Shown piece after piece: positions 2,404 through 50,474 of a DNA stretch of 52,129 bases. Position 1 is the stretch's first letter. Each line of letters begins with the position of its first letter. The notes under the pieces were generated by a model, which saw only the letters and a list, made by a program, of their open reading frames with translations, did not search any database and was not told the DNA's origin. The stretch comes from a virus (lineage: Duplodnaviria; Caudoviricetes). A program made the translations under genes and the position numbers. The stretch is taken from positions 1 to 52,129 of IMG/VR virus record IMGVR_UViG_3300046330_000118; one strand, written 5' to 3'.

Positions 2404-2435
2404 GTATCCTCCTTTCTATTTGTTTCTCCCATTTG

Positions 2436-2766: not shown

Positions 2767-2770
2767 TTGT

Positions 2771-2799
2771 GGGGTAGTTTTAAGTCATACCCCAGGACT
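2771..2799 (-). ncRNA. Compact H-type pseudoknot just 3' of the SSB-like gene
   Basis: AGTC-CT-GGGGTA-T-GACT-TAAAAC-TACCCC: S1 AGTC/GACT, S2 GGGGTA/TACCCC. Confidence 0.55.
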
Positions 2800-2810
2800 G
2801 CCCATTTAGA

Positions 2811-3284: not shown

Positions 3285-3288
3285 AAGT

Positions 3289-4017: not shown

Positions 4018-4045
4018 TTTGTTTTCTCCTCCTTAAGAGATATTC

Positions 4046-4074
4046 AGTATAACATATTCAATTCTACTTGTCAA
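4046..4074 (-). promoter_or_regulatory. Sigma70/SigA-type promoter
   Basis: TTGACA-17 bp-TATACT; the spacer contains the repeated TTGAATATGTT motif. Confidence 0.85.
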
Positions 4075-4303
4075 GCGCTTTTTCAAGTTTCTTCAAATTG
4101 TTTGCAAATGCCATCATCTTTACGAAACGATACAGTCCAAACGTAATCATAATCGATACGATCGATAGCATAATCCACTTGAGTGCTTCTGAGTCGCTTT
4201 CCTTTGCGCCCCACAGCAGGATTACTGAGAAGCAGATGCGATAGATTAGCGCCATGCTTGATGCCAGTCGGACGGTTGTCTTGTTTACGTTTATGTTATT
4301 CAT
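4064..4303 (-). CDS. Small membrane protein (2 TM)
   Basis: Two hydrophobic stretches; start coupled to the upstream stop. Confidence 0.7.
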   Translation of the reverse strand: MNNINVNKTTVRLASSMALIYRICFSVILLWGAKESDSEALKWIMLSIVSIMITFGLYRFVKMMAFANNLKKLEKALDK

Positions 4304-5025
4304 TAGGCCTCCAAAACCTTGCAGTCGAAGCAGTGCTCTTCACGCTGGAACTCTTCGATATCTTTACCGGACTGAACCTCAGCCCAGATTCTTGCTAATC
4401 TGTCCCACATTGATTGTGCGAATGCTTCGTCATAAGGGAATGTCCAAGTCCACACGTCAGGGTCGTACGTGCCATCTCGGTTGATGAACACAAGAGAACA
4501 CGCATCGATCTCAGTGCCACCCTTGTTCAAGCCCCATGCGTAAATCTGCGCCTGCGCAAAGTATCGCTTGAGGGTGTAGGTTGACTCAGCGGCAACCTTA
4601 GTGTCCCTGGCCTCGCCTAGCACAACGGACTGCAACTGGCGTGACTTCTCACGCTTCGATGTCTTCCAGTCAACAAGGTGCTTGCCCTCAACTAGGGCCA
4701 GGTCTGGCTTTGACTTGATTGTACCGTAGCCGTCAAGTTCGCCCAGTACGATTGTCTGCTCAACACGAGCAGATGCAAACTCTGGAAACTCATCAAGGTC
4801 GACTGTCTCGATACGCGCCTCTAGGAACTCATGGATTGCAGTTCCTACCTTAGCGCCCATCCAGTATTTAAACTCGCCTGACGGCAGGCCTAGCAACTTC
4901 TTGGCTAAGTGGAACTCGCATGGGTCAGAGAAGTCTGATGCTCCTACTTTGCGTTGCGAGTCTCTTGCGGACTTTTGCTTGAAAAGCCCAAGCGCCATGT
5001 CCCTGATTCGTGAATCCGGAATCAT
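4303..5025 (-). CDS. PD-(D/E)XK (Cas4/RecB-like) exonuclease
   Basis: GTAIH, PD...DWKT, QAQIYAWG and C-terminal HCFDC. Confidence 0.85.
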   Translation of the reverse strand: MIPDSRIRDMALGLFKQKSARDSQRKVGASDFSDPCEFHLAKKLLGLPSGEFKYWMGAKVGTAIHEFLEARIETVDLDEFPEFASARVEQTIVLGELDGYGTIKSKPDLALVEGKHLVDWKTSKREKSRQLQSVVLGEARDTKVAAESTYTLKRYFAQAQIYAWGLNKGGTEIDACSLVFINRDGTYDPDVWTWTFPYDEAFAQSMWDRLARIWAEVQSGKDIEEFQREEHCFDCKVLEA

Positions 5026-5046
5026 TTTCTCTCCTTTAAATGTGTA

Positions 5047-5388
5047 TTAGAACAGTGTATCTGGTTTTCTGGAAAAGTCAATACCGCCCCACACTCCATA
5101 CTGCTCCTCGTTTGCAACAGCAAAGTCGTAGCACTGCTTTAGTATTGGGCAACCATAGCACAAGGCTTCGCAGTCGTCCTCGGTGAGGGCTGAGCGCCCA
5201 GGTCCGTTGCCACTGCGAGCCTCAAAACCCAGACCGTCATAGTCGGTATAAAAGTATGGGTTATACAGGCATGGGTAGTATGGTTCTTTCTCGATTGCCG
5301 AGAACAACGCTCGCCACTTCCCCATAGCCTCCGGCTTTATGCCGAAGTGCAATGGGTCGGTAGTCATAATGGTTCCGTCTCCGGCCAT
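5047..5388 (-). CDS. whiB: WhiB-family transcription factor
   Basis: C...CYGC-PILKQC and GVWGG signature. Confidence 0.9.
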   Translation of the reverse strand: MAGDGTIMTTDPLHFGIKPEAMGKWRALFSAIEKEPYYPCLYNPYFYTDYDGLGFEARSGNGPGRSALTEDDCEALCYGCPILKQCYDFAVANEEQYGVWGGIDFSRKPDTLF

Positions 5389-5930
5389 TACTCGGCTTCC
5401 TTTGCAAACGCTAGACGCGTAATCTCTTCAGAAGCCAGTAGAACAGCAATAGGGGCACTGGCGGTAATAATAACACCCATCCAAACTCGGTAGTCAGAAG
5501 AAGTCCCATCCCAGTAAGCAAGAGTGTGGCTTGCATTAGCCACAACAGAAATGATCGCAAACCCCGATAGTCCAAGTGTCGTCCTCCAAGTAGATTCACC
5601 GCGAGCCTTGAACACAATCAGCGAGACTGTATAGGCCAAGATTGCAGCGTCGATGAATAGTGCCGGTAGCCATTGGATAACCTTTGGGATTCCAGTCCAC
5701 TCTGAGACAGAGTAGATACCACTGAATGATACAGCGAATGATGAGACCATTAGTATGCCCACCAGCACAACAGCGAGTAGCAGAACCGGTATAGAGTCTG
5801 GGTTGATTCGAGCCTTCTTTACAGCAGGCTTTTCTTCCTTTACGATAATCTCTTCTAGCATCTCTTCCTCTGTGAACTGGTGCTTAATTGGGTTGTAGAT
5901 AGGTTCAAACCCGACCACTTCATTCCTCAT
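5388..5930 (-). CDS. DUF2637-like multi-pass membrane protein
   Basis: SFAVSF...WLPALFIDAAIL...SVVANASH...APIAVLL pattern, about 4 TM segments. Confidence 0.7.
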   Translation of the reverse strand: MRNEVVGFEPIYNPIKHQFTEEEMLEEIIVKEEKPAVKKARINPDSIPVLLLAVVLVGILMVSSFAVSFSGIYSVSEWTGIPKVIQWLPALFIDAAILAYTVSLIVFKARGESTWRTTLGLSGFAIISVVANASHTLAYWDGTSSDYRVWMGVIITASAPIAVLLASEEITRLAFAKEAE

Positions 5931-6201
5931 TCCTCAAAATTCCTAACAGTTTATTCACCATCTCTGGCTCCCACAGTGTGCCTTTGTTGTATTGCTCAAT
6001 CATTGCAATCGCCTTTTCAACGCCTTGCTTGCGCTTTTCGTTCTCGATGTGCTGTGCATACTCTAGAGGCGAGAACAGCGGTGGGCTCATCCTATTCTCG
6101 ACCACCCAACTATTGTAGTCCTGAATAAGACTAATGTCAATGGTTGTCGAGAATTCAATCATCTCGCCAGTTCGTGGGTCTACAATTTCGTAATCGCTCA
6201 C
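5920..6201 (-). CDS. Hypothetical protein
   Basis: Coupled ORF in the leftward operon; VDPRTGE motif. Confidence 0.75.
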   Translation of the reverse strand: MSDYEIVDPRTGEMIEFSTTIDISLIQDYNSWVVENRMSPPLFSPLEYAQHIENEKRKQGVEKAIAMIEQYNKGTLWEPEMVNKLLGILRNEE

Positions 6202-6446
6202 TTGTGGTTCTCTCCTAGTAGGAATGAGTGGAGCGACTTAATCTTGTCGATGCGGAAGCCGGACCAAATCTTGATGTCAGTCTCGACGATAGGGGCTTGT
6301 AGCAAACCCTTAGCCTTAAACTCTTCCAACTTGTCTGGGTGCTCTGTTAGGTCGTATGACTCATACTTGATTCCGAGTCGATCGAGTTCCTTCTTTGTCA
6401 TCATACACTGCACACAACTTGGGGTGCTCCACACCTTGATGTCCAT
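6198..6446 (-). CDS. nrdH: NrdH-like glutaredoxin
   Basis: CVQC active site, QAPIV and WSGFR motifs. Confidence 0.9.
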   Translation of the reverse strand: MDIKVWSTPSCVQCMMTKKELDRLGIKYESYDLTEHPDKLEEFKAKGLLQAPIVETDIKIWSGFRIDKIKSLHSFLLGENHK

Positions 6447-6447
6447 A

Positions 6448-6618
6448 TTATTCCTCTACTTGTCCGTATGTGAAAATTTGCTTGTGTAGTTCTCGGTGCA
6501 ACTTGTCCAACTCTTTGCAGGCTTTCCATTGCCCAGCCTCTGTATAAGCAGACTCGGCCGCTTTCATCGAGGTGAAGAGCATTTCAACCTGTTGCCTTGT
6601 TAGTTCAATCTCAACCAT
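6448..6618 (-). CDS. Hypothetical protein (56 aa, not in ORF track)
   Basis: Hand translation MVEIELTRQQVEMLF...YGQVEE*; fills the operon gap. Confidence 0.7.
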   Translation of the reverse strand: MVEIELTRQQVEMLFTSMKAAESAYTEAGQWKACKELDKLHRELHKQIFTYGQVEE

Positions 6619-6695
6619 TGGCCTGCTTCATCTCCTCTAGCAATTCGTCATACGCAATCAATACCTGCACCTCAACTAGTAGTGCTAGTTCTGCT

Positions 6696-6872
6696 TTAGT
6701 CAAAATAAAGTTCCAATTCCATATCTTGCCACGCGTCAAAATCTGCGTCACACCTGCAACCGTGGCTTATGCCACACTCGTCGCAACCGTGGTTCTCACA
6801 GTTGCACTCATCTGCGCAATCGTCTGCCTCACAGCAGTCCGGGGCCCAGACATCCTTAGGTTCTAGTAGCAT
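6696..6872 (-). CDS. Acidic Cys-rich mini-protein (58 aa, not in ORF track)
   Basis: MLLEPKDVWAPDCCEADDCADECNCENHGCDECGISHGCRCDADFDAWQDMELELYFD; strong RBS AAGGAGG. Confidence 0.75.
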   Translation of the reverse strand: MLLEPKDVWAPDCCEADDCADECNCENHGCDECGISHGCRCDADFDAWQDMELELYFD

Positions 6873-6969
6873 TGTCCTCCTTGTGGCAATCGCAATCGCA
6901 GATGTAATTTGGTATCTCTAGTATGCACTGTTTGTGGTGACTTGTCAAGCACCAACCCAGCCTAGCCAA
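6856..6969 (-). CDS. Putative Cys/His-rich mini-protein (37 aa)
   Basis: TTG start overlapping the helicase end: MARLGWCLTSHHKQCILEIPNYICDCDCHKEDNATRT. Confidence 0.5.
   Translation of the reverse strand: MARLGWCLTSHHKQCILEIPNYICDCDCHKEDNATRT
6920..6948 (-). promoter_or_regulatory. Sigma70/SigA-type promoter
   Basis: TTGACA-17 bp-CATACT. Confidence 0.65.
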
Positions 6970-8356
6970 CTTGTTTTCTCAGGCTTTCGTTCATCCTCAG
7001 TTGGTCTTTGACAAGTCGTGATAACTGACCCTCGTCGTAAGTATCCTCAGCGATAATCTCATAACTAATCACCGAGCGTTTCTGCCCACGACGATCGAGG
7101 CGACCAGCGGCCTGCTCATTGAGTAGACGGTTGTCGTCCTTAGACAGCCACACAACCACGCTAGCGGCTTCCTGTAGCCCATCTGTTCCCTCACCGATTG
7201 CTGAGATTACAGCCACGATGAACTGAATCTTGCCGGCAATGAAGTCCGTCAGAGCCTGGTCACGCACTGGCTGAGAAGCCTTGCCCGACCACTCGAAAGC
7301 GTTGAAGCCTAGGCGTTGCAGTCGCTTAGTCACAACCTCAGCGAACTTCTGGCTATGGGTTAGGATAAGCATCTGCTCGCCTTGTGGGTGGTCTCCGATT
7401 ATTTGGAGGAGTTCCTCATACTTGGATGATTTACAATCCTCGCCAAACGTAACTTCTCCCTGCTCATTGATTTCAGGCACTCCGAGCGTAATTTGTCTAA
7501 GACGAATACGCACAGCAACAGGAACTTCAACGACAAGCGGGTTCTCACCAAGCCAAACGAATAATTCTTTCTCAAGTTTCTTATAAATCCTTTTCTGCTC
7601 TGAGGCTAGTTCCACTGTCCGGACTTCCGTCTGGACTGGTGGTAGTTCATTGTCAATGCCCTCTGGGTGAAACTCACAGCACTTCTCACGCTTGAGGTGG
7701 CGGATGTAGCAGGGGATTGACTCGATGATTGCGCCGGGGTTTACCTCACCAGTAATAATCTTCCCGGCAAAGAAGTCAACCTCAGTTGAACAATACTTGT
7801 CAACCCAGTTCCAATACGAGCGACCGGCGACATCTGGGTAAATCCATTTCAGGATGGCCCAGATGCCATCGATCTTGTTCCCTGCCACTGTGCCTGACAT
7901 TCCGATACGGCGCTTAGCCTTTAGGGTCGTCAGCATAATGGCAGTCTTGCTCTTGCGGTTAGACGCTCGGTGAACCTCATCAAATACCGCTAGGTCAGGC
8001 GTGATGCCTTTCCAGTGGAACTTGCGGAAATACTCTGGGCTGACCATAAACCAGCCCTTAGCCCCAGCCTCTAACGCTTTGAACGCTTGCTGTCCTGCGA
8101 CAGTAGAGTTCACATAGAACACCTCAGCGCCGGGAATCTGACGCTTGATAGTCTTCTCCCACGCTCGCTTGTGCGTTCCCTTTGGCGCAATGACAAGATT
8201 AGTCCTAGTGGCAAGACGCTTACCAACCTCAATGGCAATAAGCGTCTTACCTCCACCTACCTGCGTTGCTACAATGCCTGAGCCGTCATTGGTAATAAGT
8301 TGTTCAATGTCTCGTTCCTGATAGTTATAAGGAACAAGGGGTGCTTCACTGGTCAA
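6962..8356 (-). CDS. SF2 (SNF2/DEAD-like) DNA helicase
   Basis: YQ motif, GGGKT, DEVH, MSGT, QAAGRLDRRGQ; start moved to TTG 8356 after GGAG. Confidence 0.9.
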   Translation of the reverse strand: MTSEAPLVPYNYQERDIEQLITNDGSGIVATQVGGGKTLIAIEVGKRLATRTNLVIAPKGTHKRAWEKTIKRQIPGAEVFYVNSTVAGQQAFKALEAGAKGWFMVSPEYFRKFHWKGITPDLAVFDEVHRASNRKSKTAIMLTTLKAKRRIGMSGTVAGNKIDGIWAILKWIYPDVAGRSYWNWVDKYCSTEVDFFAGKIITGEVNPGAIIESIPCYIRHLKREKCCEFHPEGIDNELPPVQTEVRTVELASEQKRIYKKLEKELFVWLGENPLVVEVPVAVRIRLRQITLGVPEINEQGEVTFGEDCKSSKYEELLQIIGDHPQGEQMLILTHSQKFAEVVTKRLQRLGFNAFEWSGKASQPVRDQALTDFIAGKIQFIVAVISAIGEGTDGLQEAASVVVWLSKDDNRLLNEQAAGRLDRRGQKRSVISYEIIAEDTYDEGQLSRLVKDQLRMNESLRKQVG

Positions 8357-8519
8357 GATACTGTCTCCAATAGTTTTCGTGCTGTGCTTTGTAGTTTGGC
8401 ATATCGCTTCTTGTTTTTGTGCTGTCACCATCTTTGTCTAGCATGGCAACGATAACAACAATAAAAGGAGTGATTAGTGCTAGGAAGAACGCAAGCCAGA
8501 TAATGCTAGATGCTTGCAA
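8346..8519 (-). CDS. Small single-TM protein (57 aa, not in ORF track)
   Basis: IIWLAFFLALITPFIVVIVAML hydrophobic helix; fills the gap between coupled genes. Confidence 0.6.
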   Translation of the reverse strand: MQASSIIWLAFFLALITPFIVVIVAMLDKDGDSTKTRSDMPNYKAQHENYWRQYLDQ

Positions 8520-8982
8520 GAACGTCTGTTACTGCGTCGTTCTGATACAACTGTCCGACTACGAATGCGTCACCGCTTACGTGTTCAAACTCGCCGGCTT
8601 CATCAATAGAAACAACCGCCTCACCGGAAACTCGGGCAAAGCCGAAGTTCTGTAGCACGACTCGGTAAGTGCCGTCGTCTTGCCTCGCGATAGTCCATCC
8701 CGCTGATGTCGAACGCGTTACTAGTTCGCTTGTCTCTGCGAGGATGTCTTGAACAGTCTTGTAGTTGCTCGTGCCGATAGTCTTGCCTAACTGGGTGCGT
8801 GGCACTCCAGCCTCAGCGGCCAAGCGTAGCGCAATGTCACGCTTACGCTTGATAACCGCCAACTGCTCGTTCAACTGCTTCTTGAGTTCGGCCTCCAGCG
8901 TTGCCTTGGCTAGCACATACGCTGAATGCTCCTCTACGAGGGTCTCAAGGGCTTGTCTAGCGTGTGGTGTTAGTCGAGTCAT
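8506..8982 (-). CDS. Putative HTH DNA-binding protein
   Basis: ALRLAAEAGVPRTQLGKTIGTSNYKTVQDIL resembles an HTH. Confidence 0.6.
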   Translation of the reverse strand: MTRLTPHARQALETLVEEHSAYVLAKATLEAELKKQLNEQLAVIKRKRDIALRLAAEAGVPRTQLGKTIGTSNYKTVQDILAETSELVTRSTSAGWTIARQDDGTYRVVLQNFGFARVSGEAVVSIDEAGEFEHVSGDAFVVGQLYQNDAVTDVLASI

Positions 8983-9265
8983 TGACTACCTCACTTTCTC
9001 CTGCCGAGATTACGTCGTGGACTACGCCATCGATCAATCGGCCAATGGTTAGCGAGGTTAGGTCTGCGGTTAGCAACTCTAGTTCTCGTGGGTCTACCGG
9101 CTTCTCAACAACAACCTCAACCACCTGAGTGTATGCGTCTAGCGGATACCACTTGTAGTCTGAGATGTTTGGCGTATCTGATAGGAAACGCTTTTCGCTG
9201 CGTAGGCTGTCGACAACGTTAGAGATTTCACTAACGTCACCTGTAATAATGTATTCGAGTTTCAT
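8957..9265 (-). CDS. Hypothetical protein
   Basis: RBS AAGGAGGAA; coupled ORF. Confidence 0.75.
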   Translation of the reverse strand: MKLEYIITGDVSEISNVVDSLRSEKRFLSDTPNISDYKWYPLDAYTQVVEVVVEKPVDPRELELLTADLTSLTIGRLIDGVVHDVISAGESEVVNDSTNTTR

Positions 9266-9301
9266 ATTCCTCCTTAGGAATGTTAGGGATTTATTGTATC
9301 A

Positions 9302-9937
9302 CTATTTGTCGCACTTTGAACAATTGCAGGAGTGTTTCCCGTCCTTGTCCATAGACTTCTTTTCCTCCACAGTTCGAGGGCAGTCCTTATACCAAGAGTC
9401 TTCGTCGTCGTCCCACTCACACACGCACTCACGCCCCTTTGAGACGTAATCCTCGTGCGAATCTGGGATGTCCCACTCGGACTTGTGGCTAACCTCGCCG
9501 TTGTGGTAGGTGAGGATGCCACCCCAGCCCTGCTCCTCTTCGTATTCAACGTTGAAGATTAGGTTTGGGAACATCTTTGCCATAGCGTCGAACACTGGCA
9601 TTGGTGGCGACCATGCAGTGTTGAAGTTGATAAGCACATAGTCGCTAAGGCCACGCTCCACAACTTCTTCACAAGCGTTCCACTTGGTGTCCCAGTTCTC
9701 GTTGTTCCACTTATACCAGTTGAACTCAGGGTCTCCGCTAAACACGCCACCACTGTAACCGGCGACGCTGTGGTATTGCTCCACCTTGTCCTCTGGCGGG
9801 GTGACGAACGAGTGGAAGTTGAACTGCCTCGGTTCATTTGGGGTGAACGGTGACGGCTTGCTAGCGTGTTCTAGGAACGCTGTTACCTCTGCGTCGCTAC
9901 CTCGAACAGAAATTGAATTGAATACCCAGTTAGGCAT
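9302..9937 (-). CDS. DUF1281/YubB ferredoxin-like domain protein
   Basis: MPNW..N, WY.WN..NWDTKWNA and F.TAWSPP signature motifs. Confidence 0.8.
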   Translation of the reverse strand: MPNWVFNSISVRGSDAEVTAFLEHASKPSPFTPNEPRQFNFHSFVTPPEDKVEQYHSVAGYSGGVFSGDPEFNWYKWNNENWDTKWNACEEVVERGLSDYVLINFNTAWSPPMPVFDAMAKMFPNLIFNVEYEEEQGWGGILTYHNGEVSHKSEWDIPDSHEDYVSKGRECVCEWDDDEDSWYKDCPRTVEEKKSMDKDGKHSCNCSKCDK

Positions 9938-10118
9938 TGTCGGTCTCCTTTGTCTTTACTTCCTCAACGTCGAAATACCATTCGGCGTGTATTTCGTAAT
10001 CCTCAAAATCGTCGGCTATCCAGTCTTGAACCTGCTTGTAAGCCTCGTCCTTGTTGGTGGCCTCAACCTCCACCTTATACCAGTGTCGGCGTGTTGCGTA
10101 AATTGCATACTTAGTCAT
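9930..10118 (-). CDS. Small hypothetical protein (DpnD/PcfM-like)
   Basis: VEVEATNKDEA motif; start reassigned to MTKY after AAGGAG. Confidence 0.7.
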   Translation of the reverse strand: MTKYAIYATRRHWYKVEVEATNKDEAYKQVQDWIADDFEDYEIHAEWYFDVEEVKTKETDNA

Positions 10119-10278
10119 TGTTGCGCTCCTTCTTCTTGAAAGCAATGTCAACGCTGTAAAACTCTGCTACAAGTTCTAGGGCGTTGCCCCAAAACTCAAT
10201 CTCAATGGCGGTGTCCTTGTGCATTTGCACTAGGTCGTCAGCCAGTCTACTGGCAATCTTCTCTAGTCTTGGGTTCAT
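10111..10278 (-). CDS. Hypothetical protein
   Basis: Start MNPRLEK after GAGGAG. Confidence 0.7.
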   Translation of the reverse strand: MNPRLEKIASRLADDLVQMHKDTAIEIEFWGNALELVAEFYSVDIAFKKKERNND

Positions 10279-10279
10279 C

Positions 10280-10483
10280 CTATATCTCCTCTTCATCAAT
10301 GCTCATCCGAGCGTCTAGGTCAAATAGTCTTAGGTTGTCGTGTCCCACAAATCGATCGATAACAAACCACTGACGCTGTGAGAGCGTGTCCTCGTGGCCA
10401 TGCAGTTGCTCTAGGTACTCCTCTAGCAGTGCGCCCTCTAGTTTGTATACGGCCTTGAAAGTTACGGTAATTTGCTTAGTCAA
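10280..10483 (-). CDS. Hypothetical protein
   Basis: Coupled ORF, TTG start. Confidence 0.7.
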   Translation of the reverse strand: MTKQITVTFKAVYKLEGALLEEYLEQLHGHEDTLSQRQWFVIDRFVGHDNLRLFDLDARMSIDEEEI

Positions 10484-10577
10484 AAATCACGCTCAGGCTT
10501 TCTCCGCCACAACTAGGGCAGATGTCGGTGTTGCTTGTCGGGTCTGGCTCACTCCAGCCACATTCTCTACAAATCAT
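10476..10577 (-). CDS. Zinc-ribbon mini-protein (33 aa, not in ORF track)
   Basis: MICRECG...ICPSCGG; RBS GGAG. Confidence 0.65.
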   Translation of the reverse strand: MICRECGWSEPDPTSNTDICPSCGGESLSVIFD

Positions 10578-10779
10578 TTTTCTCCAGATAATCCAATCTT
10601 GTTGCCAGTCGGCTCACTTTGCGGAGTGACTGGTTGATACTAGTGTATATCTCTCGCTTGGCTTTGTCAAGCCAATCTGGGTCTGATGCAAAGAAAGTTC
10701 CAGCAACCGCGTCCCCGAGGACTGGCATCTCCATCAAATCTAGTTCTTCACATAGCGCGGTGATAATGTCTTCGCGCAT
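10567..10779 (-). CDS. Hypothetical protein
   Basis: Start reassigned to MREDIIT. Confidence 0.65.
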   Translation of the reverse strand: MREDIITALCEELDLMEMPVLGDAVAGTFFASDPDWLDKAKREIYTSINQSLRKVSRLATRLDYLEKNDL

Positions 10780-10792
10780 CTCTTCTTGACTG

Positions 10793-11068
10793 TTATACAA
10801 GCGACAATGCCTCATTCGCCATATACATCTCATCTAGTGGAACGGCAATCTTCTTGGCAATCGCCTCAATCTGTGCCACCTTCCTGTCGAGGGCCTGCCC
10901 CTTGTCTTCACGCTTGTTGTAGGTGTTGAGGTCGGCAATCGCTGATAGAACTGCTGAGCGGTCGAACAGAGCCTCCTCGGCCAGCATAATCTCCTCTAGG
11001 GTTAGATAGACGGCGTAGGTCGGCTGGTTAGGCTTGAGAGCCTCTTTGATAACGGTTTTGTCAATCAT
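10793..11068 (-). CDS. Hypothetical protein
   Basis: ORF in the tightly packed leftward cluster. Confidence 0.75.
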   Translation of the reverse strand: MIDKTVIKEALKPNQPTYAVYLTLEEIMLAEEALFDRSAVLSAIADLNTYNKREDKGQALDRKVAQIEAIAKKIAVPLDEMYMANEALSLV

Positions 11069-11296
11069 TTAGATACCTTCTTCTCTCATGATGTTGATGT
11101 AACTGTTTAGGTCGTCGTCGGTTAGGTAGTGGTTCTGGATGATGTCCTCTGCCAGCCACTCCCACTGTGCCTCGGTGAGTGTGCCGTCATAGGCTTGTTC
11201 GAGTTCCTCTTTCTCGATAAGCATATAAGCAACCGTCCGGTCGCCATCCTTAGCGAGGTATTTGTTCAGGATAAAAATTAGTTCACTGAGTAGCAT
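11069..11296 (-). CDS. Hypothetical acidic protein
   Basis: LSELIFILNK...LTEAQW motif. Confidence 0.75.
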   Translation of the reverse strand: MLLSELIFILNKYLAKDGDRTVAYMLIEKEELEQAYDGTLTEAQWEWLAEDIIQNHYLTDDDLNSYINIMREEGI

Positions 11297-11507
11297 TATT
11301 CTCTTTCATTTTGTTTTCAAAGTCAACTGCTTGACTGTAACTTAGGTTCTTGAGTTGGTCTTCAGCGATGAAGAAGAACTCCTTGTAAATAGGCTGGTAA
11401 AGTTCCCCTGCGATAGCGTCTGCCACCTTGCGACTCTTACAGGTCATAACTAACCGGCCGGTCTGGTCGTAGAACGCAATCGATCGAAGTCGAGGGTTGC
11501 TAGCCAT
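11283..11507 (-). CDS. Hypothetical protein
   Basis: Coupled ORF. Confidence 0.7.
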   Translation of the reverse strand: MASNPRLRSIAFYDQTGRLVMTCKSRKVADAIAGELYQPIYKEFFFIAEDQLKNLSYSQAVDFENKMKENNATQ

Positions 11508-11730
11508 TGATGATTTCCTTTACGGCCTGCTTCATAGTGTCGTTACCATCGTCACCGAGGAACTCGTTATTGTCGTAGTAGTAGGCGATATCCGACCACT
11601 GCTTGTCGGTCAGTGCCTCGTTTGTGAACTCCTCAGCGTCCTCCTTGAGCCAAATCTGGTTGATACCTAGGATTGTCTCGGGTGGCATTGTGGACAGGAA
11701 TGCGATAACTTCTCGGACTGTTCTTGACAT
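11500..11730 (-). CDS. Hypothetical acidic protein
   Basis: TVREVIAFLSTMPPET...LTDKQW; RBS AAAGGAG. Confidence 0.75.
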   Translation of the reverse strand: MSRTVREVIAFLSTMPPETILGINQIWLKEDAEEFTNEALTDKQWSDIAYYYDNNEFLGDDGNDTMKQAVKEIING

Positions 11731-11776
11731 TATTTACTCCTTTTTGTGATTGTTTGTGTAGTTTGGGGACGGATTC

Positions 11777-12103
11777 CGACACGCCCGAAATGCATTCAAT
11801 ATGTTATTTGCATTGAATATGTTAGGGGTTACATTGGTGAATCTCATAAAATGTCTTCGTAGAATATACTATAATCTACTAACAAAAAATGCTATGTAAT
11901 GGTCGGGGGATGTTGCGGAGGGGGTGATTTCGCATTCAATATGTTCAGGATTGAAACATATTAGATGCAAAATGGGCCAAATTTGAAAGTGTTCTATGTC
12001 TCTATATTATTTATTATTATATTATTTGTCTATGTAGTGAGGACTGGGGAGCGAGCGTGAAGTCTACACAACGCACTCGGGCGTGTCGTGGGTTGAATAT
12101 GTT
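11777..12103. repeat. AT-rich non-coding region with a 12-bp inverted repeat and multiple AATATGTT boxes
   Basis: CGACACGCCCGA 11777-11788 / TCGGGCGTGTCG 12077-12088; GCATT(C/G)AATATGTT at 11792, 11810, 11932; inverted variant 11955-11968; TTGAATATGTT at 12093. Confidence 0.8.
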
Positions 12104-12108
12104 ATCAA

Positions 12109-13197
12109 TTAGTCCCAGTAAGAACGACGGCTAAAACGAGAGCCGATAGTCTGGGACCGATTGAACTGATACTCATCCTCAGAAGCCGGAGTGACCTCCT
12201 CAGGGTCTTGGGTGTAACACATATTCTTGTCCGACCAGTAACGGTTGTAACGAGCCGTCTCGTAGTCCTCGTGAAGAGTGTCATAAGTTCCCATATAAGT
12301 GCCGTCGAAGTCATAGTAGAAACCCTCGTGAAGCACAAAGCCCTCTAAGTAATCCTCGAAGCCCTCGTCATACTCCTCCCACAAGCCACTGTATGGGTCG
12401 TCATAGCCCCAAGCAGTGCTTTGCTGGGTGAACTTGCCACCGGCAGTCGCAGAGCGGTAAGAGGCGTAAGAGGATGCTGACAACTTCTGCTCGAACTCAG
12501 GGTCAAGGTCAGGCAAAGTAGACATCTCATCAATGCGACCATCGCGAACAGCAAGCAGTGTGCGCTCCTTCACGTCCATAATGAAGTTATACTTGAGGCC
12601 AACAGAATCCAAGGCATTAGTCAGGATAGACTCGGTAGAGGCAAACACGAACGAGCCGTCAGCCAACTGAGCAACAGTCAAAGGACTGTGGCTGATACGA
12701 GCAACATTGAGAACACCCTTGTTAGACTCGTCAAGCCAAGCAACAGCCGCATCGCCGTCAAGCATAGAGAACTTGTCAGTAGAAGAGAACTGCTGAAGAA
12801 TAGCAGGAATAACAGCAGTATCAACATCTGGCAACTGCTTAGACTTAGACAAATGCGCACGAACAAGGTCGTGGTTATAAATGACACCATTGTGAACAAG
12901 GCTAATAGACGAATCAGGCGACTGAACCGGGTGATTGTTACGGTTATCACGAATAGAGCCATGCGTTGCAAGGCGAGTGTGCAAAATGACACTAGAAGCC
13001 TGCTTAGGCATAGACTTGAGAGTTAGGTTGCTACCAGAAACATCCTGCTTATAGAAGCCAGAACCCTGAGCATACTGGAAAGCATAACCAGAAGCCTGAT
13101 TGCCACGCTTCTCCAGTCCGGTAAGCAAAGCGTGAGCGAGTTTACGAGCATTTACTTTAGAGCCTGTCGAGAGGCTGAATCCACCGATTCCACACAT
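12109..13197 (-). CDS. Class-II (Ntn) glutamine amidotransferase
   Basis: N-terminal MCGIGG (Cys2 nucleophile), RG..ASG, HTRLATHG, NNHP, HNGVI, DTA; start reassigned to 13197. Confidence 0.9.
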   Translation of the reverse strand: MCGIGGFSLSTGSKVNARKLAHALLTGLEKRGNQASGYAFQYAQGSGFYKQDVSGSNLTLKSMPKQASSVILHTRLATHGSIRDNRNNHPVQSPDSSISLVHNGVIYNHDLVRAHLSKSKQLPDVDTAVIPAILQQFSSTDKFSMLDGDAAVAWLDESNKGVLNVARISHSPLTVAQLADGSFVFASTESILTNALDSVGLKYNFIMDVKERTLLAVRDGRIDEMSTLPDLDPEFEQKLSASSYASYRSATAGGKFTQQSTAWGYDDPYSGLWEEYDEGFEDYLEGFVLHEGFYYDFDGTYMGTYDTLHEDYETARYNRYWSDKNMCYTQDPEEVTPASEDEYQFNRSQTIGSRFSRRSYWD

Positions 13198-13251
13198 AAT
13201 ATCTAATCCATTCCGACCCATCCGGGTCAATTGCGTTTTCCAACTACTTAT

Positions 13252-20750: not shown

Positions 20751-21749
20751 ATGACTGTGCAGCTAAACGAAAACCTGGCGTTTTCAGCACCTTCTGGCAA
20801 GGGCAACAAGTGGCGCATCAAGGTTATCGAGGCTGGCTGGGGTAGCTCAGGCTACTACGCAGCTGACATGCTTGCTGAGTTTGGCCCTCGAACCTTTAAG
20901 GCTGGAACTAAGGTATTTATGAACCACCCTGGCGCTAGCGAGTCTAACGACCGCCCAGAGCGTGACGTTCACCAGTTGGCCGGAAAGCTAACCAGTGACG
21001 CAGTATTCCAGGAGAATGGTCTATTCGCAGAAGTCGAATTTTACTCACACTACGCACCAATCATCCGAGAGATGGCTGGCGACGTAGGTTTGTCAATTCG
21101 TGCAACTGGCTCCGTCAAGATTGGCGAAGCTGAGGGGCGAGAAGGTCCTATCGTCGAATCGCTATCGGATGATGATCCAATGACGAGCGTTGATGTGGTA
21201 ACCGTAGCAGGAGCGGGCGGTAAGTTTGTTTCGCTGCTCGAAAGCTACAAAATCAAAGAGGAAGCTACAATCGTAGCCGAATCTTCTATGGAAGGAAATA
21301 GAATGTCTATTACTAAGGAAGAGTTTGATTCAGCTATCGCTGAGTTGAAGAACACCCTTGTTGAGGCACTCAGCCCTCTTAAGGAGTCAGTAATGGCTCT
21401 TGTTGAGGCAGCTACTCCTGCTGACGACGAGAAGACTGAAGACGAGGCTACCGAAGAGGTAGCAATCGACCCAGTTGAAGTTGCTGAGAAGTTCAACGAG
21501 TCAGGTCTACCAAAGATTGCGCTTACCCGCGTAGCTGAGGCCCTGAAATCAGAAACCAACACCAAGACCGTTGATGAACTAATCGAGTCTGAGAAGGCAT
21601 ACGCTGACTCAATTCGCGAGAGCATCAAGGCAACCGCTCCAGCTACTGCTGAGGTTGTTGGCGTTGTCCACGAGGCTAACAAGGCCGCAACCACCGCTGG
21701 TAACGACGACTACGATTCAGTAATCGCTCGCCTAACTGGCAAGAACTAA
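20751..21749 (+). CDS. Capsid maturation protease / scaffold fusion
   Basis: GWGSSGYY, NHP, GLSI, SVDVV..AGAGG protease motifs; acidic helical C-terminus. Confidence 0.85.
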   Translation: MTVQLNENLAFSAPSGKGNKWRIKVIEAGWGSSGYYAADMLAEFGPRTFKAGTKVFMNHPGASESNDRPERDVHQLAGKLTSDAVFQENGLFAEVEFYSHYAPIIREMAGDVGLSIRATGSVKIGEAEGREGPIVESLSDDDPMTSVDVVTVAGAGGKFVSLLESYKIKEEATIVAESSMEGNRMSITKEEFDSAIAELKNTLVEALSPLKESVMALVEAATPADDEKTEDEATEEVAIDPVEVAEKFNESGLPKIALTRVAEALKSETNTKTVDELIESEKAYADSIRESIKATAPATAEVVGVVHEANKAATTAGNDDYDSVIARLTGKN

Positions 21750-21762
21750 GGAAAGGCACATC

Positions 21763-22089
21763 ATGGCTCTTAACGAGATCTATGCAGTAGCTAACAGCCT
21801 ATCATTCCCTGTAGCGGACACCGTTGTATCTGGTGACCTTGTACAGGTTGGACAGGTAGTTGGTATTGCTGAGCACGACGCGAAGGAAAAGGAAGATGGC
21901 AACACCTACGCTACTCTTAAGCTTACCGGCGCATTCAAACTAGAGACTGCAGACACCGTTTCTGTTGGCGCAAAGGTATACGTTAGCTCAGCTGGCGCAG
22001 TTACCACCACCGCTACCAGCAACAAGTTGATCGGTCACGCTATCAAGGCTGGAACTGGCTACGTTGTAGTCCGTTTGCAGCAGAACTAA
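21763..22089 (+). CDS. DUF2190-like capsid decoration/cement protein
   Basis: VVSGDLVQVG..VGIA...G.F.L...VGAKVY; lies between protease and capsid genes. Confidence 0.8.
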   Translation: MALNEIYAVANSLSFPVADTVVSGDLVQVGQVVGIAEHDAKEKEDGNTYATLKLTGAFKLETADTVSVGAKVYVSSAGAVTTTATSNKLIGHAIKAGTGYVVVRLQQN

Positions 22090-22102
22090 GGGACGGTAGA
22101 AA

Positions 22103-23212
22103 ATGACTGAAAACATTACTTCACGCCAGGTCGAAGCCGCTAAGCTCCTCGAAGGTGCTATCCGCGGTGACCGCCAGGACAAGCTAAAGCTACAGGAAGG
22201 TATCTCTACCTCTGACCTGCCAGTTCAGCTTGCACCAACCATCAACAAGATCATGCTTGCAAACTATGCAGAGCAGCCAAAGGTTTGGGACGCTTTCGCA
22301 ACCCGCCTAGTTGTTGATGACTTCCGCCCAACCCAGTACATGAACCTTGCTTACGAAGACGACGGTCTTGACAACGAAGGCGACAAGTTCCGCGCTGGCT
22401 CACTACCTACCGTTGGCGAGTACGACGAGTACCCAACTGCTGGCTGGTTCTCATTCTCTGAGGCTGAGTTCGCAGTGAAGAAGGCCGGTTCACGTATCCG
22501 CTTCTCATGGGAATCAATCATCAACGACGGCAACATCTCAATCCTTGAGCGTCTACCTCTCGAGCTTGCTCGCAAGGCAGCTGGCAAGGAAGACGAGGAA
22601 GTTACCAAGCAGCTAGTTACCTCTTCAGGTCTAAACACTGCTAACTTCAAGTCGGGTAACCAGAACCTACTAGCAGGCAACCCTGTGCTCTCACTAGAGT
22701 CACTAGAGGCTGCAATCACTGCTGCTAACGTTCAGACCTACAACGGCAACTCAATCACCCCACTTAGCCGCTTCGTTCTAGTTGTCCCACAGGCACTTGA
22801 GCTAACCGCTAAGAAGATCCTTGCTGTGCAGCAGGTTCGTACCGAGGTTACCTCTGGTGACACCGTTACTTCTGTTGTTGCAGGCAACCCAATCGCTTCT
22901 TCGATTCAGATCGTTGTAAACCCTTGGATTAAGAAGATCTACAACAACTCAAACGCTGACAAGTTCTGGTTCCTACTTCCAGTTCCTTCAGACACCATCA
23001 ACCCAGGTCTAGTACTTGGCTTCCTGCGCGGACACGAGGCTCCTGAGCTTCGCGTCAAGGCAAACGGTGGCTTGTACCTAGGCGGCGGTGCAGTACCTGC
23101 TCGCGAAGGTTCGTTCGACAACGACGACTTCGAGATGCGTATTCGCCACATCGCAACCGGTGGCTTCTTGCTACCAACTGGTACCATTGCATCAACCGGT
23201 GCTGGCGCTTAA
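22103..23212 (+). CDS. Major capsid protein (HK97 fold)
   Basis: STSDLP, V.E.DEY, K.G.RIRFSWE.IIND, LVVP.ALE; strongly biased codons; followed by a terminator. Confidence 0.9.
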   Translation: MTENITSRQVEAAKLLEGAIRGDRQDKLKLQEGISTSDLPVQLAPTINKIMLANYAEQPKVWDAFATRLVVDDFRPTQYMNLAYEDDGLDNEGDKFRAGSLPTVGEYDEYPTAGWFSFSEAEFAVKKAGSRIRFSWESIINDGNISILERLPLELARKAAGKEDEEVTKQLVTSSGLNTANFKSGNQNLLAGNPVLSLESLEAAITAANVQTYNGNSITPLSRFVLVVPQALELTAKKILAVQQVRTEVTSGDTVTSVVAGNPIASSIQIVVNPWIKKIYNNSNADKFWFLLPVPSDTINPGLVLGFLRGHEAPELRVKANGGLYLGGGAVPAREGSFDNDDFEMRIRHIATGGFLLPTGTIASTGAGA

Positions 23213-23232
23213 TAGCCCAGTTCCCGAATAGC

Positions 23233-23268
23233 GAGAACCCTCACCTTCGGGTGGGGGTTTTCTGCTTT
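23233..23268 (+). terminator. Rho-independent terminator after the capsid gene
   Basis: GAACCCTCACC-TTCG-GGTGGGGGTTT plus T-rich tail. Confidence 0.9.
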
Positions 23269-23284
23269 CTGGTACAATAGATGT

Positions 23285-23350
23285 ATCACGTTCCTCCTTC
23301 GTGAATGATTCTCGCCCTGTTGAGCTTTTGCTCCGGGGCGAGTTTCTTTT
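23285..23350 (+). ncRNA. Candidate sRNA of about 65 nt with an anti-Shine-Dalgarno hairpin loop and its own terminator
   Basis: -10 TACAAT 23273-23278; hairpin TCACG-[TTCCTCCTT]-CGTGA; terminator CTCGCCCTG..GAGC-TTTT-GCTC-CGGGGCGAG-TTTCTTTT. Confidence 0.65.
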
Positions 23351-23370
23351 ATGCGGTATAATAGAGCATA

Positions 23371-24096
23371 ATGATTATTCTTCCAGACCATAATTTACCT
23401 ACCCAGTCTGCTGACTGGGGGGATGCGGTCGAACGCGAGCTCAAGAAGCTTGACAAGAAGACTGGCGGCACTGGTGGGCGTGGCTCAAGTGGTGCTGAGG
23501 GGCCGCAGGGGCCTCAAGGAGAGGCTGGACCGCAGGGTCCGCAAGGAGAACAAGGTGTTCAAGGAGAAACAGGCGCTACGGGCGCTACAGGCCCTCAAGG
23601 CGCTACAGGACCGCAGGGAATCCAGGGTGAGGTCGGACCGACTGGCCCTCAAGGAGCTCAGGGGATACAAGGTCCTGCTGGTGCGGATGGTTTGGACGGG
23701 GCTACTGGACCAATGGGACCTCAGGGTCTACAAGGAGTTCAGGGCGATGCCGGGCCTCAAGGCATACAAGGAGTTCAGGGCGCGACAGGTGCTACGGGAC
23801 CTCAAGGTCCTGCTGGAAGTGATGGCCTCAATGGCGCAGATGGCGCTACGGGTCCTACTGGAGCTACTGGCGCTCAAGGCCCTAAAGGCGATAAGGGTGA
23901 CACTGGCAATCAGGGCCTTACCGGCCTATCGGCGTATCAAGTTGCACAACTTAATGGTTTTACTGGAACTGAGCAGGAATGGCTCGCAACGCTGGTAGGT
24001 CCAGCAGGTGCTCCATACGGTAATATAGACGGTGGAAGCCCAACAAGTATTTATGGCGGTATTCCTAGCATTGATGGCGGAAGCGTGATTATTTAA
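23371..24096 (+). CDS. Collagen-like fibre protein
   Basis: Long Gly-X-Y run, GLSAYQVA..NGFTGTEQEWL motif, C-terminal IDGG repeats. Confidence 0.9.
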   Translation: MIILPDHNLPTQSADWGDAVERELKKLDKKTGGTGGRGSSGAEGPQGPQGEAGPQGPQGEQGVQGETGATGATGPQGATGPQGIQGEVGPTGPQGAQGIQGPAGADGLDGATGPMGPQGLQGVQGDAGPQGIQGVQGATGATGPQGPAGSDGLNGADGATGPTGATGAQGPKGDKGDTGNQGLTGLSAYQVAQLNGFTGTEQEWLATLVGPAGAPYGNIDGGSPTSIYGGIPSIDGGSVII

Positions 24097-24317
24097 TGGC
24101 AGTTCAAATTCAACTTAGAGGCGGCACACTCGCTGAGTGGACCTCCGCTAACCCTATTATCGCCATCCGTGAGATGGTGCTTGAAACAGACACCGACCAG
24201 TTTAAAATTGGAAACGGAGTAGACAACTACCTTGACCTGCCTTACGGCGGAATTCAAGGTCCAGCGGGCGCTAATGGTTCATTCGATGGAACTGTAATCG
24301 ATGGCGGAACCGCTTAA
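24096..24317 (+). CDS. Short fibre protein with Mtd/hyaluronidase N-terminal-like domain
   Basis: IQLRGGTLAEWTSANP...ETDT..FKIGNG....LPY. Confidence 0.8.
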   Translation: MAVQIQLRGGTLAEWTSANPIIAIREMVLETDTDQFKIGNGVDNYLDLPYGGIQGPAGANGSFDGTVIDGGTA

Positions 24318-24691
24318 TGTCAGAAGCAAAGCGATGCACAGACCACGAGTTTGTTCAGCACAAAAGAATTAATTCTGCTTGTGCAATTTGCTATAGGCGA
24401 TACAGCGCCTCAAAGTCTAGGCAATATCGAGTAGAGGCCGCCAATCTATTTAACGAGTATAAGGTAAAGACGGGCTGCGCTAAGTGCGGGTATAATGGTC
24501 ATTTTGCTGGACTTGAGTTTGACCACATTGTCGCCGTCAAGGGCGGCCTAAAAAGAAGTGGTATAAAAAGAACTAAAGCTTCGCTTGCTAAATTAATACA
24601 AGACGACAACATACAGGTTCTTTGCGCGACATGTCACAGAATCAAGACTTGGGAAAATGGCGACTATAAAAAAGACACTGAGATCGCCTAG
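24317..24691 (+). CDS. HNH endonuclease (free-standing)
   Basis: CAKCG...LEFDHI...NIQVLCATCHRIKT. Confidence 0.9.
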   Translation: MSEAKRCTDHEFVQHKRINSACAICYRRYSASKSRQYRVEAANLFNEYKVKTGCAKCGYNGHFAGLEFDHIVAVKGGLKRSGIKRTKASLAKLIQDDNIQVLCATCHRIKTWENGDYKKDTEIA

Positions 24692-24712
24692 TTATGGTAG
24701 AATAGAGTTACA

Positions 24713-25723
24713 ATGGCTAATGAACTCCCTTCAAACGTAGGCTACGGTACTGTTACCGGACGCTTCCTTCTTGCCTACTCTGACAGTGCAGATGGCGACC
24801 TTTATCCAGATGGTGCGCCCGCAAAAGGCTCAGTTCTATTTACCCCATCTCCTAACTTTGTAAAGAACGTTACCGCATCTCCTGCGCCTGTAACCATTCT
24901 TCCTGCCACTATTTCCTGTGACCTTGACTCGGAGGGTTACCTTCTTGGCTACACTGGAACTCGCGGTGTTCGCCTAGTCGCAACCGATGACGCAGACAAC
25001 AACCCAGTCGACTGGACTTGGAAGGTTACCTTCCGTCTAACCGACGCTGATGGAACCCCAACTCGCGGCATCCCAGATTTCAGCTTTGAACTGCCTCAGG
25101 GCACAACTGTTGACCTGACAAGCGCCATGCCCGTGCCAGACGCAAATGGCACCTACTACCTGATTGGCCCAACTGGACCTACTGGCGCAACTGGCCCAAC
25201 CGGAGCCACCGGCGCAACTGGTGCCGCAGCAACTATCTCTGTTGGCACGGTGACTACCGGGGCTGCTGGCTCAAGTGCGTCTGTAACTAATGTCGGCACT
25301 ACTGGTGCTGCAGTCTTTGACATCGCGATTCCTCGTGGCGACAAGGGCGAAAAGGGTGACACCGGTAACACTGGTGCAACTGGCGCTACTGGTGCAACCG
25401 GCCTTAACTGGCAGGGTGTTTGGTCAAGCTCTACTGACTACGTAGATGACGATGCGGTTTACTACAATGGCGCTTCCTGGTTTGCCTCGGGGAACCCGAC
25501 CGTTGGCGAAGTCCCAGAGATTGGTGCAACCCACTGGATGCCGCTTGCACTACAGGGAGCAACTGGAGCAACTGGAGCCACTGGCCCACAGGGGCCTCAA
25601 GGTATTCAGGGTGAGCCTGGCAACCTAGGCGATCTAGCGGGAACCCTGCCTATCACTTACGTCGGTTCAACAATTGGATTCGACCCAACTTATATTTTGT
25701 TCATTGACGGAGGAACTGCCTAA
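24713..25723 (+). CDS. Collagen-containing fibre/minor structural protein
   Basis: Gly-X-Y blocks, WQGVWSSSTDY..DDAV repeat-type motif, ends FIDGGTA. Confidence 0.85.
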   Translation: MANELPSNVGYGTVTGRFLLAYSDSADGDLYPDGAPAKGSVLFTPSPNFVKNVTASPAPVTILPATISCDLDSEGYLLGYTGTRGVRLVATDDADNNPVDWTWKVTFRLTDADGTPTRGIPDFSFELPQGTTVDLTSAMPVPDANGTYYLIGPTGPTGATGPTGATGATGAAATISVGTVTTGAAGSSASVTNVGTTGAAVFDIAIPRGDKGEKGDTGNTGATGATGATGLNWQGVWSSSTDYVDDDAVYYNGASWFASGNPTVGEVPEIGATHWMPLALQGATGATGATGPQGPQGIQGEPGNLGDLAGTLPITYVGSTIGFDPTYILFIDGGTA

Positions 25724-28970: not shown

Positions 28971-28984
28971 GATAGAATAGACTT

Positions 28985-29389
28985 ATGCCTACGATTCCAG
29001 ATGTAACACCTCCAGACTATGCAACAGTAGTGGGTCAGATTCGTCTACTCATTCCAGATGTCGAGCAACTAGAAAACCTAGCAGACCCGACAGTAGGCGC
29101 TGCGTACATCTTTGAAGACGCACAGATTCAGGCATTTGCTACTCTATACAGCAACAATGTGAAGAGGGCGGCAGCACAGGCAAAACTTGTGCTTGCCACC
29201 TCTGAAGCGTTGATTAACAAGGTTATCCGCACCGCAGACTACACAACTGACGGCGCTAAGCTTGGCGCTGAGCTTCGTGAGCAGGCTAAGGCTCTCCGCG
29301 AAGAGGCTGACAACGACGACAAGTATGACTCTTATGAGACGTTCCTCGTTGTGCCACAGTCGGCTCGATGGGAAAACGATTGGCTCTAA
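28985..29389 (+). CDS. Head-to-tail adaptor
   Basis: GQIRLLIPD...IFEDAQI..F...NVKRAAA. Confidence 0.8.
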   Translation: MPTIPDVTPPDYATVVGQIRLLIPDVEQLENLADPTVGAAYIFEDAQIQAFATLYSNNVKRAAAQAKLVLATSEALINKVIRTADYTTDGAKLGAELREQAKALREEADNDDKYDSYETFLVVPQSARWENDWL

Positions 29390-49257: not shown

Positions 49258-49265
49258 GTTTCCTC

Positions 49266-50459: not shown

Positions 50460-50474
50460 GCGCCCGTTTCCCCG

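Follow-up and report, generated by a model that had tools for sequence, protein, structure and literature searches.

The window analyzed here is a complete 52,129-bp virus record from IMG/VR (IMGVR_UViG_3300046330_000118), in which the minus strand carries the replication genes (approximately 208-13230 and 47935-52129) and the plus strand carries the structural genes (13716-47876). Within the structural arm, between the genes for the major capsid protein (22103-23212, stop codon at 23210-12) and a collagen-like fiber protein (23371-24096), we found an intergenic unit (23271-23350, plus strand) that is predicted to encode a small RNA (sRNA) with an anti-Shine-Dalgarno (anti-SD) loop. The genes for the head maturation protease (20751-21749) and the decoration protein (21763-22089) precede the capsid gene, and an HNH endonuclease gene (24317-24691) and further fiber proteins follow the fiber gene, all of them on the plus strand.

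The upstream boundary of the unit is the predicted terminator of the head-gene transcript (23233-23270), a stem of 13 pairs (23233-23262) followed by a T-rich tail. The unit opens with a putative promoter, P1 (GGTACAAT, 23271-23278), composed of GG plus the hexamer TACAAT (23273-78), with no evident -35 box and a predicted start at A23285. The predicted RNA (23285-23350, approximately 65 nt) consists of a 5' hairpin, a 6-nt linker, a terminator hairpin, and a U-tract. In the 5' hairpin (23286-23304), a 5-bp stem (TCACG at 23286-90, CGTGA at 23300-04) presents the 9-nt anti-SD loop UUCCUCCUU (23291-99; TTCCTCCTT when read as DNA). The intrinsic terminator of the sRNA (23311-23350) has a stem (23311-23342) with a 9-bp basal part, a UU bulge, and a 4-bp apical part, and ends in the tail TTTCTTTT (23343-50). 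A second putative promoter, P2 (23357-23373), comes next, its TATAAT box (23357-62) lying 8 nt from the ATG of the fiber gene (23371), which has no SD and a leaderless or near-leaderless start. As predicted from the sequence, the sRNA terminator also insulates this leaderless promoter. An earlier note on this DNA had described the same arrangement, i.e., a -10 box, the TCACG/CGTGA hairpin, and a terminator between the capsid terminator and the next promoter, and all of these parts are present.

Folding from the predicted +1 position (23285) gives exactly the 5' hairpin and the terminator, with a free energy of -30.2 kcal/mol. The 80-nt stretch folds at -30.9 kcal/mol (z = -5.14), a value that none of 200 shuffled sequences attained, the bulk of this energy being contributed by the terminator. 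A simple sigma-70 scan missed both P1 and P2, since neither has a -35 box. Boxes of the P1 type, GGTAnAAT-AGA, are likewise found before leaderless genes of the structural arm (23371, 24713, and 28985), and P1 would presumably be active late in infection.

Conservation and covariation of the unit

A search with the back-translated capsid protein detected 134 viral contigs encoding a capsid relative, of which 80 were kept (72 to 99% amino acid identity). Many of these relatives have the unit in the DNA that follows the capsid gene, where it adjoins the capsid terminator or is separated from it by one to several inserted genes. Two covariance models were built, R1 from 12 versions with short linkers and R2 from 20 correctly aligned versions. 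R1 gave 58 matches in 81 sources, on the capsid strand in all cases except one weak overlapping match, and the unit of the window is the sole match in its genome with either model (69.8 bits with R1 and 75.3 bits with R2). R2 recovered the unit, at 32.7 to 78 bits, in all 45 sources it was given, which were 44 loci picked for having the unit plus one contig from a metagenome-assembled genome (MAG) described below (L138). With the same model, exactly one copy was found in each of six complete genomes and in four of five further records, the fifth being an 85% complete record whose contig ends at the capsid gene. Thus, all eight genomes that are 98 to 100% complete carry a single copy. The earlier note had proposed looking downstream of the capsid genes of related phages for a conserved loop on a covarying stem, and such a structure is present in dozens of them.

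With a loose sequence pattern, matches were obtained in 70 viral contigs and in 105 contigs of bacterial or archaeal origin. R1 accepted 61 matches in 66 of the viral pattern loci, and when applied to 100 of the other 105 contigs it gave one good match, in a 9.5-kb Rhodoluna MAG contig, and one weak match in Syntrophaceae (25 bits, probably a chance hit). The remaining 5 of the 105, screened alongside the viral loci, contained no model match. Because R1 accepts viral loci and nearly no bacterial or archaeal ones, the unit is regarded as specific to this phage family. Host or chromosomal homologs were set aside, since the only good match lies in a phage-like contig with the same gene order. This contig (L138, labeled Rhodoluna sp.) has at 3880-4120 (minus strand) the same succession of promoter, hairpin, terminator, and leaderless fiber gene, and its loop reads CACCUCCUU. 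The contig probably derives from a phage, and its assignment to a Rhodoluna bin gives no more than a weak indication of the host.

Relatedness of the hairpins does not parallel that of the capsid proteins. A locus with 74% capsid identity (L038) nearly shares the hairpin of the window, while loci with 92% identity (L004 to L007) have quite different stems. This disagreement suggests that the RNA and the fiber gene are exchanged between phages as a module.

Aligning the versions of the unit required some care. On a plain MAFFT alignment, RNAalifold detected the terminator, 7 of whose 12 pairs show compensatory changes, and the MAFFT alignments (A1, A2, and A5) misplaced the 5' hairpin because the lengths of the loop and the linker vary. 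The alignment to the first model (A4) forced wrong partners in the rows with long linkers, and the counts for helix 1 were taken from the alignment to the second model (A7). A7 has 46 rows, two of them wrong (L033, placed on a middle hairpin, and L070, a 16-bit match on the minus strand), and being fitted to its model it leans toward it. In A7, 98.8% of the cells are paired, compared with 72.6% after column shuffling and 44 to 51% when the partners are slid by one to three columns. Both sides have changed in 15 of the 18 pairs, and none of 500 shuffles reached any of the pairing or covariation measures. Double changes are found in all six pairs of helix 1 (97.5% of cells paired), as exemplified by pair 3-35, which is AU in 17 rows, CG in 17, UA in 8, GC in 2, and UG in 2. 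They are also found in eight of the nine pairs of the basal stem of the terminator. A flexible stem search found at least 5 pairs in 35% of shuffled flanks, and no statistic was drawn from it.

Unconstrained folding of 42 distinct versions with RNAfold gave a similar picture. In all 42, CUCC occupies the apical loop of the 5' hairpin, in 40 of them on a contiguous stem of at least 4 bp, whereas with shuffled flanks it does so in 14% of cases. Approximately 30 different stem sequences bear the invariant loop core CUCCU, which in A7 shows no alignment gap in 44 of the 46 rows. Most versions read CCUCCUU, and the loop ACCUCCUUU, found in L028, L041, L070, L055, L270, and L271, shares 9 nt with the 3' tail of bacterial 16S rRNA. 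The other elements are also maintained. A TAnnnT hexamer stands 3 to 7 nt before the base of the hairpin in 39 of 41 true distinct versions (12 nt in L015 and L081), and the GC-rich terminator stem (9 + 3 pairs with covariation) is followed by a T-run that is short in some relatives. Within the terminator, the apical G-A-G/C-U-C is invariant while the basal stem covaries freely. At this apex (23311-23342 in the window, columns 69-98 of A7), the 46 rows are identical in the UU bulge and in both sides of the stem (GUUGAG and CUC). Versions with long linkers (e.g., L010, L034, L041, L054, L077, and L078) have, ahead of the terminator, a UG-rich linker (UGUGUGUG...) and often a third small hairpin.

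Double changes in all the stem pairs together with an invariant loop indicate selection on the fold of a single-stranded RNA and not on duplex DNA. We consider it very probable that the unit is a selected and transcribed RNA element. The message of a leaderless gene has to start with the AUG, so that a terminator upstream of its promoter is sensible, and the locus is a mosaic junction with variable gene insertions between the capsid gene and the unit. One could therefore suppose that the terminator just insulates the fiber promoter and that the -10 box and the hairpin are neutral passengers or signals at the DNA level, for recombination or protein binding. That explanation is very improbable, since it does not account for six of six stem pairs of the 5' hairpin being kept through double changes, for some 30 stems around one loop core, or for a -10 box that holds its distance to the hairpin.

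A coding function is even less likely. No sense open reading frame (ORF) is conserved across the versions of the unit, and the candidate of a small sense ORF was rejected for this reason. The minus strand reads AAGGAGG across the loop, and the earlier note had named as an alternative that this is the ribosome binding site (RBS) of a translated antisense ORF. In the window, a GTG (23289) lying 4 nt after the antisense GGAG opens 26 codons, and a 60-amino-acid antisense ORF (23391-23209) covers the region. However, the start codon of the latter is located upstream of the antisense SD, inside the fiber gene. A start codon 4 to 12 nt after the antisense GGAG is missing in 22 of 42 versions, and the other 20 open antisense ORFs of 1 to 68 codons with unrelated products. 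Moreover, covarying stems would be unexpected for an RBS. The absence of a conserved antisense ORF contradicts this alternative, to which we give hardly any credence. The 60-amino-acid ORF (23209-23391, minus strand) spans the whole unit, has no RBS, is not conserved, and is almost certainly spurious. In relatives such as L003 and L017, the capsid terminator is followed, ahead of the RNA unit, by a very short Lys/Arg-rich ORF of approximately 28 to 40 codons that has its own SD.

An Rfam scan with E values up to 10, run on 3 kb and on 111 nt, assigned no family to the element. The subthreshold hits were chance matches to mir-17 (in the collagen repeats), the rnk leader (in the capsid terminator), and a Brucella sRNA. 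The claim of the earlier note that this is a self-contained sRNA gene with an anti-SD loop is strongly supported by its own -10 box, covarying stems, invariant loop, terminator, single copy, and lack of a conserved ORF.

Coupling to a leaderless fiber gene

The unit is followed by a -10 box located 6 to 10 nt before the ATG of a gene of the MIIFPDxNLP type in 40 of 41 true distinct versions, L073 being the exception; in the window, the fiber product starts with MIILPDHNLP and its gene has no SD. All 56 loci in which this N terminus was found have the unit at most 140 nt upstream (53 detected by pattern and 3 by eye), and it also lies upstream of the fiber gene in L008 and four more loci, making 61 of 61. 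The unit is never found apart from the fiber gene, although at this mosaic junction variable genes can separate it from the capsid gene. This coupling may arise because a leaderless gene needs a terminator right upstream, which is shared with the small RNA.

Leaderless starts are not restricted to the fiber gene. In the six genomes, a TAnAAT box stands 5 to 10 nt before the first start codon in 19 of 240 genes of the structural arm and in 1 of 200 genes of the replication arm, the expectation from motif density being approximately 0.5% per gene. Late genes with a GGTAnAAT box 6 to 9 nt before the ATG and no SD occur in the window at 23357-23373, 24698-24715, and 28973-28987, as well as in five relatives (G001 to G005). 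They include orthologous genes for the fiber (MIIFPD..), a protein of 130 to 134 amino acids (MPxIPDxxPPDYS..), and a product starting with MANELPSN. Judging from these signatures, the family appears to use leaderless messages for some of its late genes. Such messages are in keeping with an actinobacterial host.

The capsid protein has at most approximately 41% identity to those of cultured phages (97 records), the best match being Stenotrophomonas virus Jojan60, followed by many phages of Arthrobacter, Clavibacter, Curtobacterium, Microbacterium, and Streptomyces. Among 50,697 phage records, megablast found no nucleotide relative of the window and blastn found just four short matches to collagen repeats, and a tblastn search of the same records with the fiber N terminus (E up to 0.01) gave no match. 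The DNA runs containing the stretch are labeled freshwater metagenomes. We regard the family as uncultured, siphophage-like freshwater viruses whose host is probably actinobacterial.

The fiber gene of the window codes for 241 amino acids, and its product aligns with only the first ~213 (57% identity) of the 777-amino-acid fiber protein of a relative (L257:7456-9789). The fiber proteins of relatives have 750 to 870 amino acids, and in the window a 73-amino-acid fiber-like ORF and the HNH endonuclease come after the fiber gene. We also considered that the sRNA could mask SD-like repeats inside the collagen-like gene. SD-like six-mers are enriched in the window gene (6 matches, 8.3/kb against a mean of 1.56), but in the fiber genes of G001, G002, G003, and G005 they amount to 0 to 3.7/kb (ranks 18 to 34, not enriched), and the idea was rejected because these relatives lack the enrichment.

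The order of promoter, hairpin, and strong terminator directly before the fiber gene in all 61 loci where this gene was found is also what a cis-acting leader of the tail and fiber genes would look like. In a leader of the processive antitermination type, the hairpin loop would be a boxB- or put-like site for a factor that modifies RNA polymerase, P1 would by default give a short terminated RNA, and the resemblance of the loop to the anti-SD would be incidental. Hairpins that bind proteins typically combine an unchanging loop with a stem that covaries freely, and the apical terminator sequence is invariant as well. Nevertheless, we consider a leader of this type unlikely. It would be expected before a gene with no promoter of its own, and the fiber gene has a conserved -10 box 6 to 10 nt before its ATG and no SD, so that a read-through transcript could not translate it well. 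Several promoters of the same kind are found inside the structural arm with no such leader, and the unit does not open the late region as a whole but comes after the head genes. Nor is there any sign of an alternative (antiterminator) fold, as both hairpins fold independently in all 42 versions. Finally, the 7-nt identity with the ribosomal anti-SD in most versions would have to be a coincidence.

Complementarity to Shine-Dalgarno sites

If the loop acts by base pairing, RBSs are its obvious candidate targets. The best site in the window is the RBS (9267-9275, minus strand) of a small gene (8957-9265), which is the exact 9-nt complement (AAGGAGGAA) of the loop. Complements of 8 nt, all on the minus strand as well, were found at the RBSs of the genes for the DNA primase (208-2403; RBS at 2406-2414), an SSB-like protein (2811-3284; RBS at 3294-3302), a Sak4-like ATPase involved in single-stranded DNA annealing (3289-4017; RBS at 4026-4034), and a dUTPase (48844-49257; RBS at 49260-49268), and further matches to 8 of the 9 loop nucleotides lie at 6874-82 and 11638-46. 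The exact complement at 9267-9275 and the 8-nt matches to the RBSs of the primase, the ATPase, and a gene at 6872 (2406-14, 4026-34, and 6874-82) had been pointed out in the earlier note, and they are indeed there. A tRNA-Asn (GTT) gene (2435-2507, minus strand) is located just upstream of the start of the primase gene.

Such matches are more frequent than expected and are not evenly distributed. The window has 24 loop matches with at most one mismatch, compared with an expectation of 12.5 ± 3.6, and none of 100 shuffles reached 24. All start regions with a loop match of at least 8 nt belong to the replication arm, while the start regions of the structural genes match the loop over 3 to 5 nt, with the exception of 25723 (7 nt). 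Pooling six genomes and comparing each start site with the cognate loop, matches of at least 8 nt were found in 8 of 200 replication genes and 0 of 238 structural genes (p = 0.0017), and matches of at least 7 nt in 15 of 200 and 3 of 238 (p = 0.0012). Likewise, a duplex energy of -10 kcal/mol or lower was reached by 34 of 200 replication genes and 8 of 238 structural genes (p = 1e-6). This asymmetry fits an RNA that would tell early messages with a strong SD from late ones with a weak SD or none.

The unit could then be an approximately 65-nt, trans-acting phage sRNA that pairs through its loop with SD sites, a proposal drawn from sequence features that we rate as about equally likely to be right or wrong. 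The RNA would be made together with the structural arm, starting one base before the 5' hairpin from a -10-only promoter of the type shared with the leaderless genes of that arm, and would end at the intrinsic terminator after approximately 65 nt. The hairpin would keep (C)CUCCU(U), the same sequence as the anti-SD part of the 16S rRNA 3' tail, single stranded in its loop, from where it would pair with RBSs of the AGGAGG type and block binding of the 30S subunit (RBS occlusion). The strongest effect would be expected on messages with long, strong SDs, i.e., those of replication-arm genes such as the primase, the SSB-like protein, the Sak4-like ATPase, the dUTPase, and others, and possibly also on host mRNAs. 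Structural-arm genes that have weak SDs or are leaderless would be spared.

A broader version of this proposal, to which we give a low probability, is global masking. Made in bulk at the same time as the leaderless and weak-SD structural genes are expressed, the RNA would cover the SDs of host and early phage messages alike and hand the ribosomes over to late messages that do not depend on an SD. If true, this would be an RNA-based switch for translational takeover, physically coupled to the first leaderless late gene.

Several observations weigh against a trans-acting anti-SD RNA. The difference between the arms is significant in four of the six genomes taken singly and absent in two (G002 and G004), and it rests on crude gene calls (greedy longest ORFs with the first start codon). 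The asymmetry is equally seen for the motif of the 16S tail itself, and the complementarity is generic, because any strong SD will match an anti-SD loop. Matches extend to 10 nt in G003 and 9 nt in G005, and no extended match exists for the loops of G001 and G002. In addition, an RNA acting in trans needs no fixed neighbor, yet the unit adjoins the fiber gene in all 61 loci, and the invariance of the terminator apex exceeds the needs of termination, which hints at a further interaction. Expression data do not help in this regard. Parts of the 2-kb stretch occur in six RNA runs, and the contigs of four of them cover the capsid gene of close relatives (21700-23145) and two 20-nt collagen pieces. 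These metatranscriptome contigs leave 23156-23363 uncovered, which says nothing either way about the sRNA, since libraries of this kind would not retain an RNA as short as 65 nt.

Private coevolution of the loop flanks with the flanks of early SDs was inconsistent across genomes and was rejected, and with no consistent covariation between them no private target is demonstrated. The trans-acting repressor proposed in the earlier note is plausible, as the matches and their concentration in the replication arm stand, but the matches are those of any strong SD and their flanks do not covary with the loop.

The identity of the loop with the 16S tail may also be read in another way. Phage RNAs that mimic host RNAs to disarm defenses are known in other systems, and the unit could be a decoy of the 16S rRNA 3' tail that titrates a protein, for example an abortive-infection endoribonuclease of the MazF type that cleaves within or beside the anti-SD, or a factor for ribosome maturation or hibernation. 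The loop equals the core of the tail in nearly all versions, and the identity reaches 9 nt (ACCUCCUUU) in several lineages. A mycobacterial MazF is reported to remove the anti-SD by cutting at CACCU (PMC12274833), an activity that such a decoy could counter. However, the flanks that a sequence-specific protein would read are variable, CACCU is found only in L004, L023, and L138, and a hairpin loop is structurally unlike a free 3' tail, so that we regard a decoy as quite improbable. Even so, the trans-acting anti-SD proposal does not explain the UG-rich linker and its third mini-hairpin, nor the invariant terminator apex and the coupling to the fiber gene, which keeps the antitermination leader and the decoy alive as explanations.

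Comparison with known regulatory RNAs

Few regulatory RNAs are known from phages, and those of actinobacterial and freshwater phages are essentially uncharacterized. The unit is a core, single-copy noncoding gene common to a widespread family of lake phages, and its design is simple, with one loop equal to the anti-SD. If the trans-acting proposal is true, these phages would use ribosome recruitment to keep early and late protein synthesis apart, turning off genes with a strong SD and sparing those with a weak SD or leaderless, and the unit would offer a minimal natural tool, 65 nt long, to repress translation in an SD-specific manner. Quite apart from the RNA, these phages provide evidence of a class of late phage genes with leaderless messages.

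In phage lambda, the PR'-tR' "6S" transcript and the N/boxB or put sites combine a promoter, a short RNA with a conserved hairpin, and a terminator before late genes. In contrast, the gene after the phage unit described here is served by a leaderless promoter of its own, and the anti-SD sequence forms the loop. Among Firmicutes sRNAs, RsaE/RoxS and LhrC target SD regions with short UCCC or CCUC loop motifs, but each of them has several such motifs, and they are chromosomally encoded and stress responsive. Their models did not match the unit in the Rfam scan with E values up to 10, and neither did those of the alpha-r14/cuckoo and 6C families.

Noncoding RNAs have been reported in cluster A mycobacteriophages (L5, D29, and StarStuff), where they come from a ~500-bp region at the right end of the genome, are expressed from an early promoter, and have no known function (PMC5712189). 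No anti-SD loop is described for them there, and they have no sequence relation to the unit. Among the papers listed by literature searches, with supplements outside their scope, none described a phage-encoded anti-SD sRNA.

The closest parallels are chromosomal. The alpha-r14 or cuckoo sRNAs of Alphaproteobacteria (NfeR1 and CcsR1-4) resemble the unit in carrying the anti-SD in hairpin loops, in the ultraconservation of these loops on differing stems, and in having their own promoter and terminator, and they repress by RBS occlusion with seeds of ~8 nt (PMC10746234). They differ in that they have three hairpins with the identical motif CCUCCUCCC and are chromosomal, in contrast to the single (C)CUCCU(U) loop of the phage unit, placed before a leaderless gene. 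The 6C sRNA belongs to Actinobacteria, the probable host phylum of these phages. Its C-rich loops pair with G-rich RBS regions and need no chaperone (PMC6486639). It is a longer RNA encoded by a conserved chromosomal gene and has two functional C-rich loops, compared with one in the phage unit. The unit is a member of neither the alpha-r14 nor the 6C family. Taken together, its sequence features and these comparisons suggest a phage-borne sRNA with an anti-SD loop that differs from the known families.

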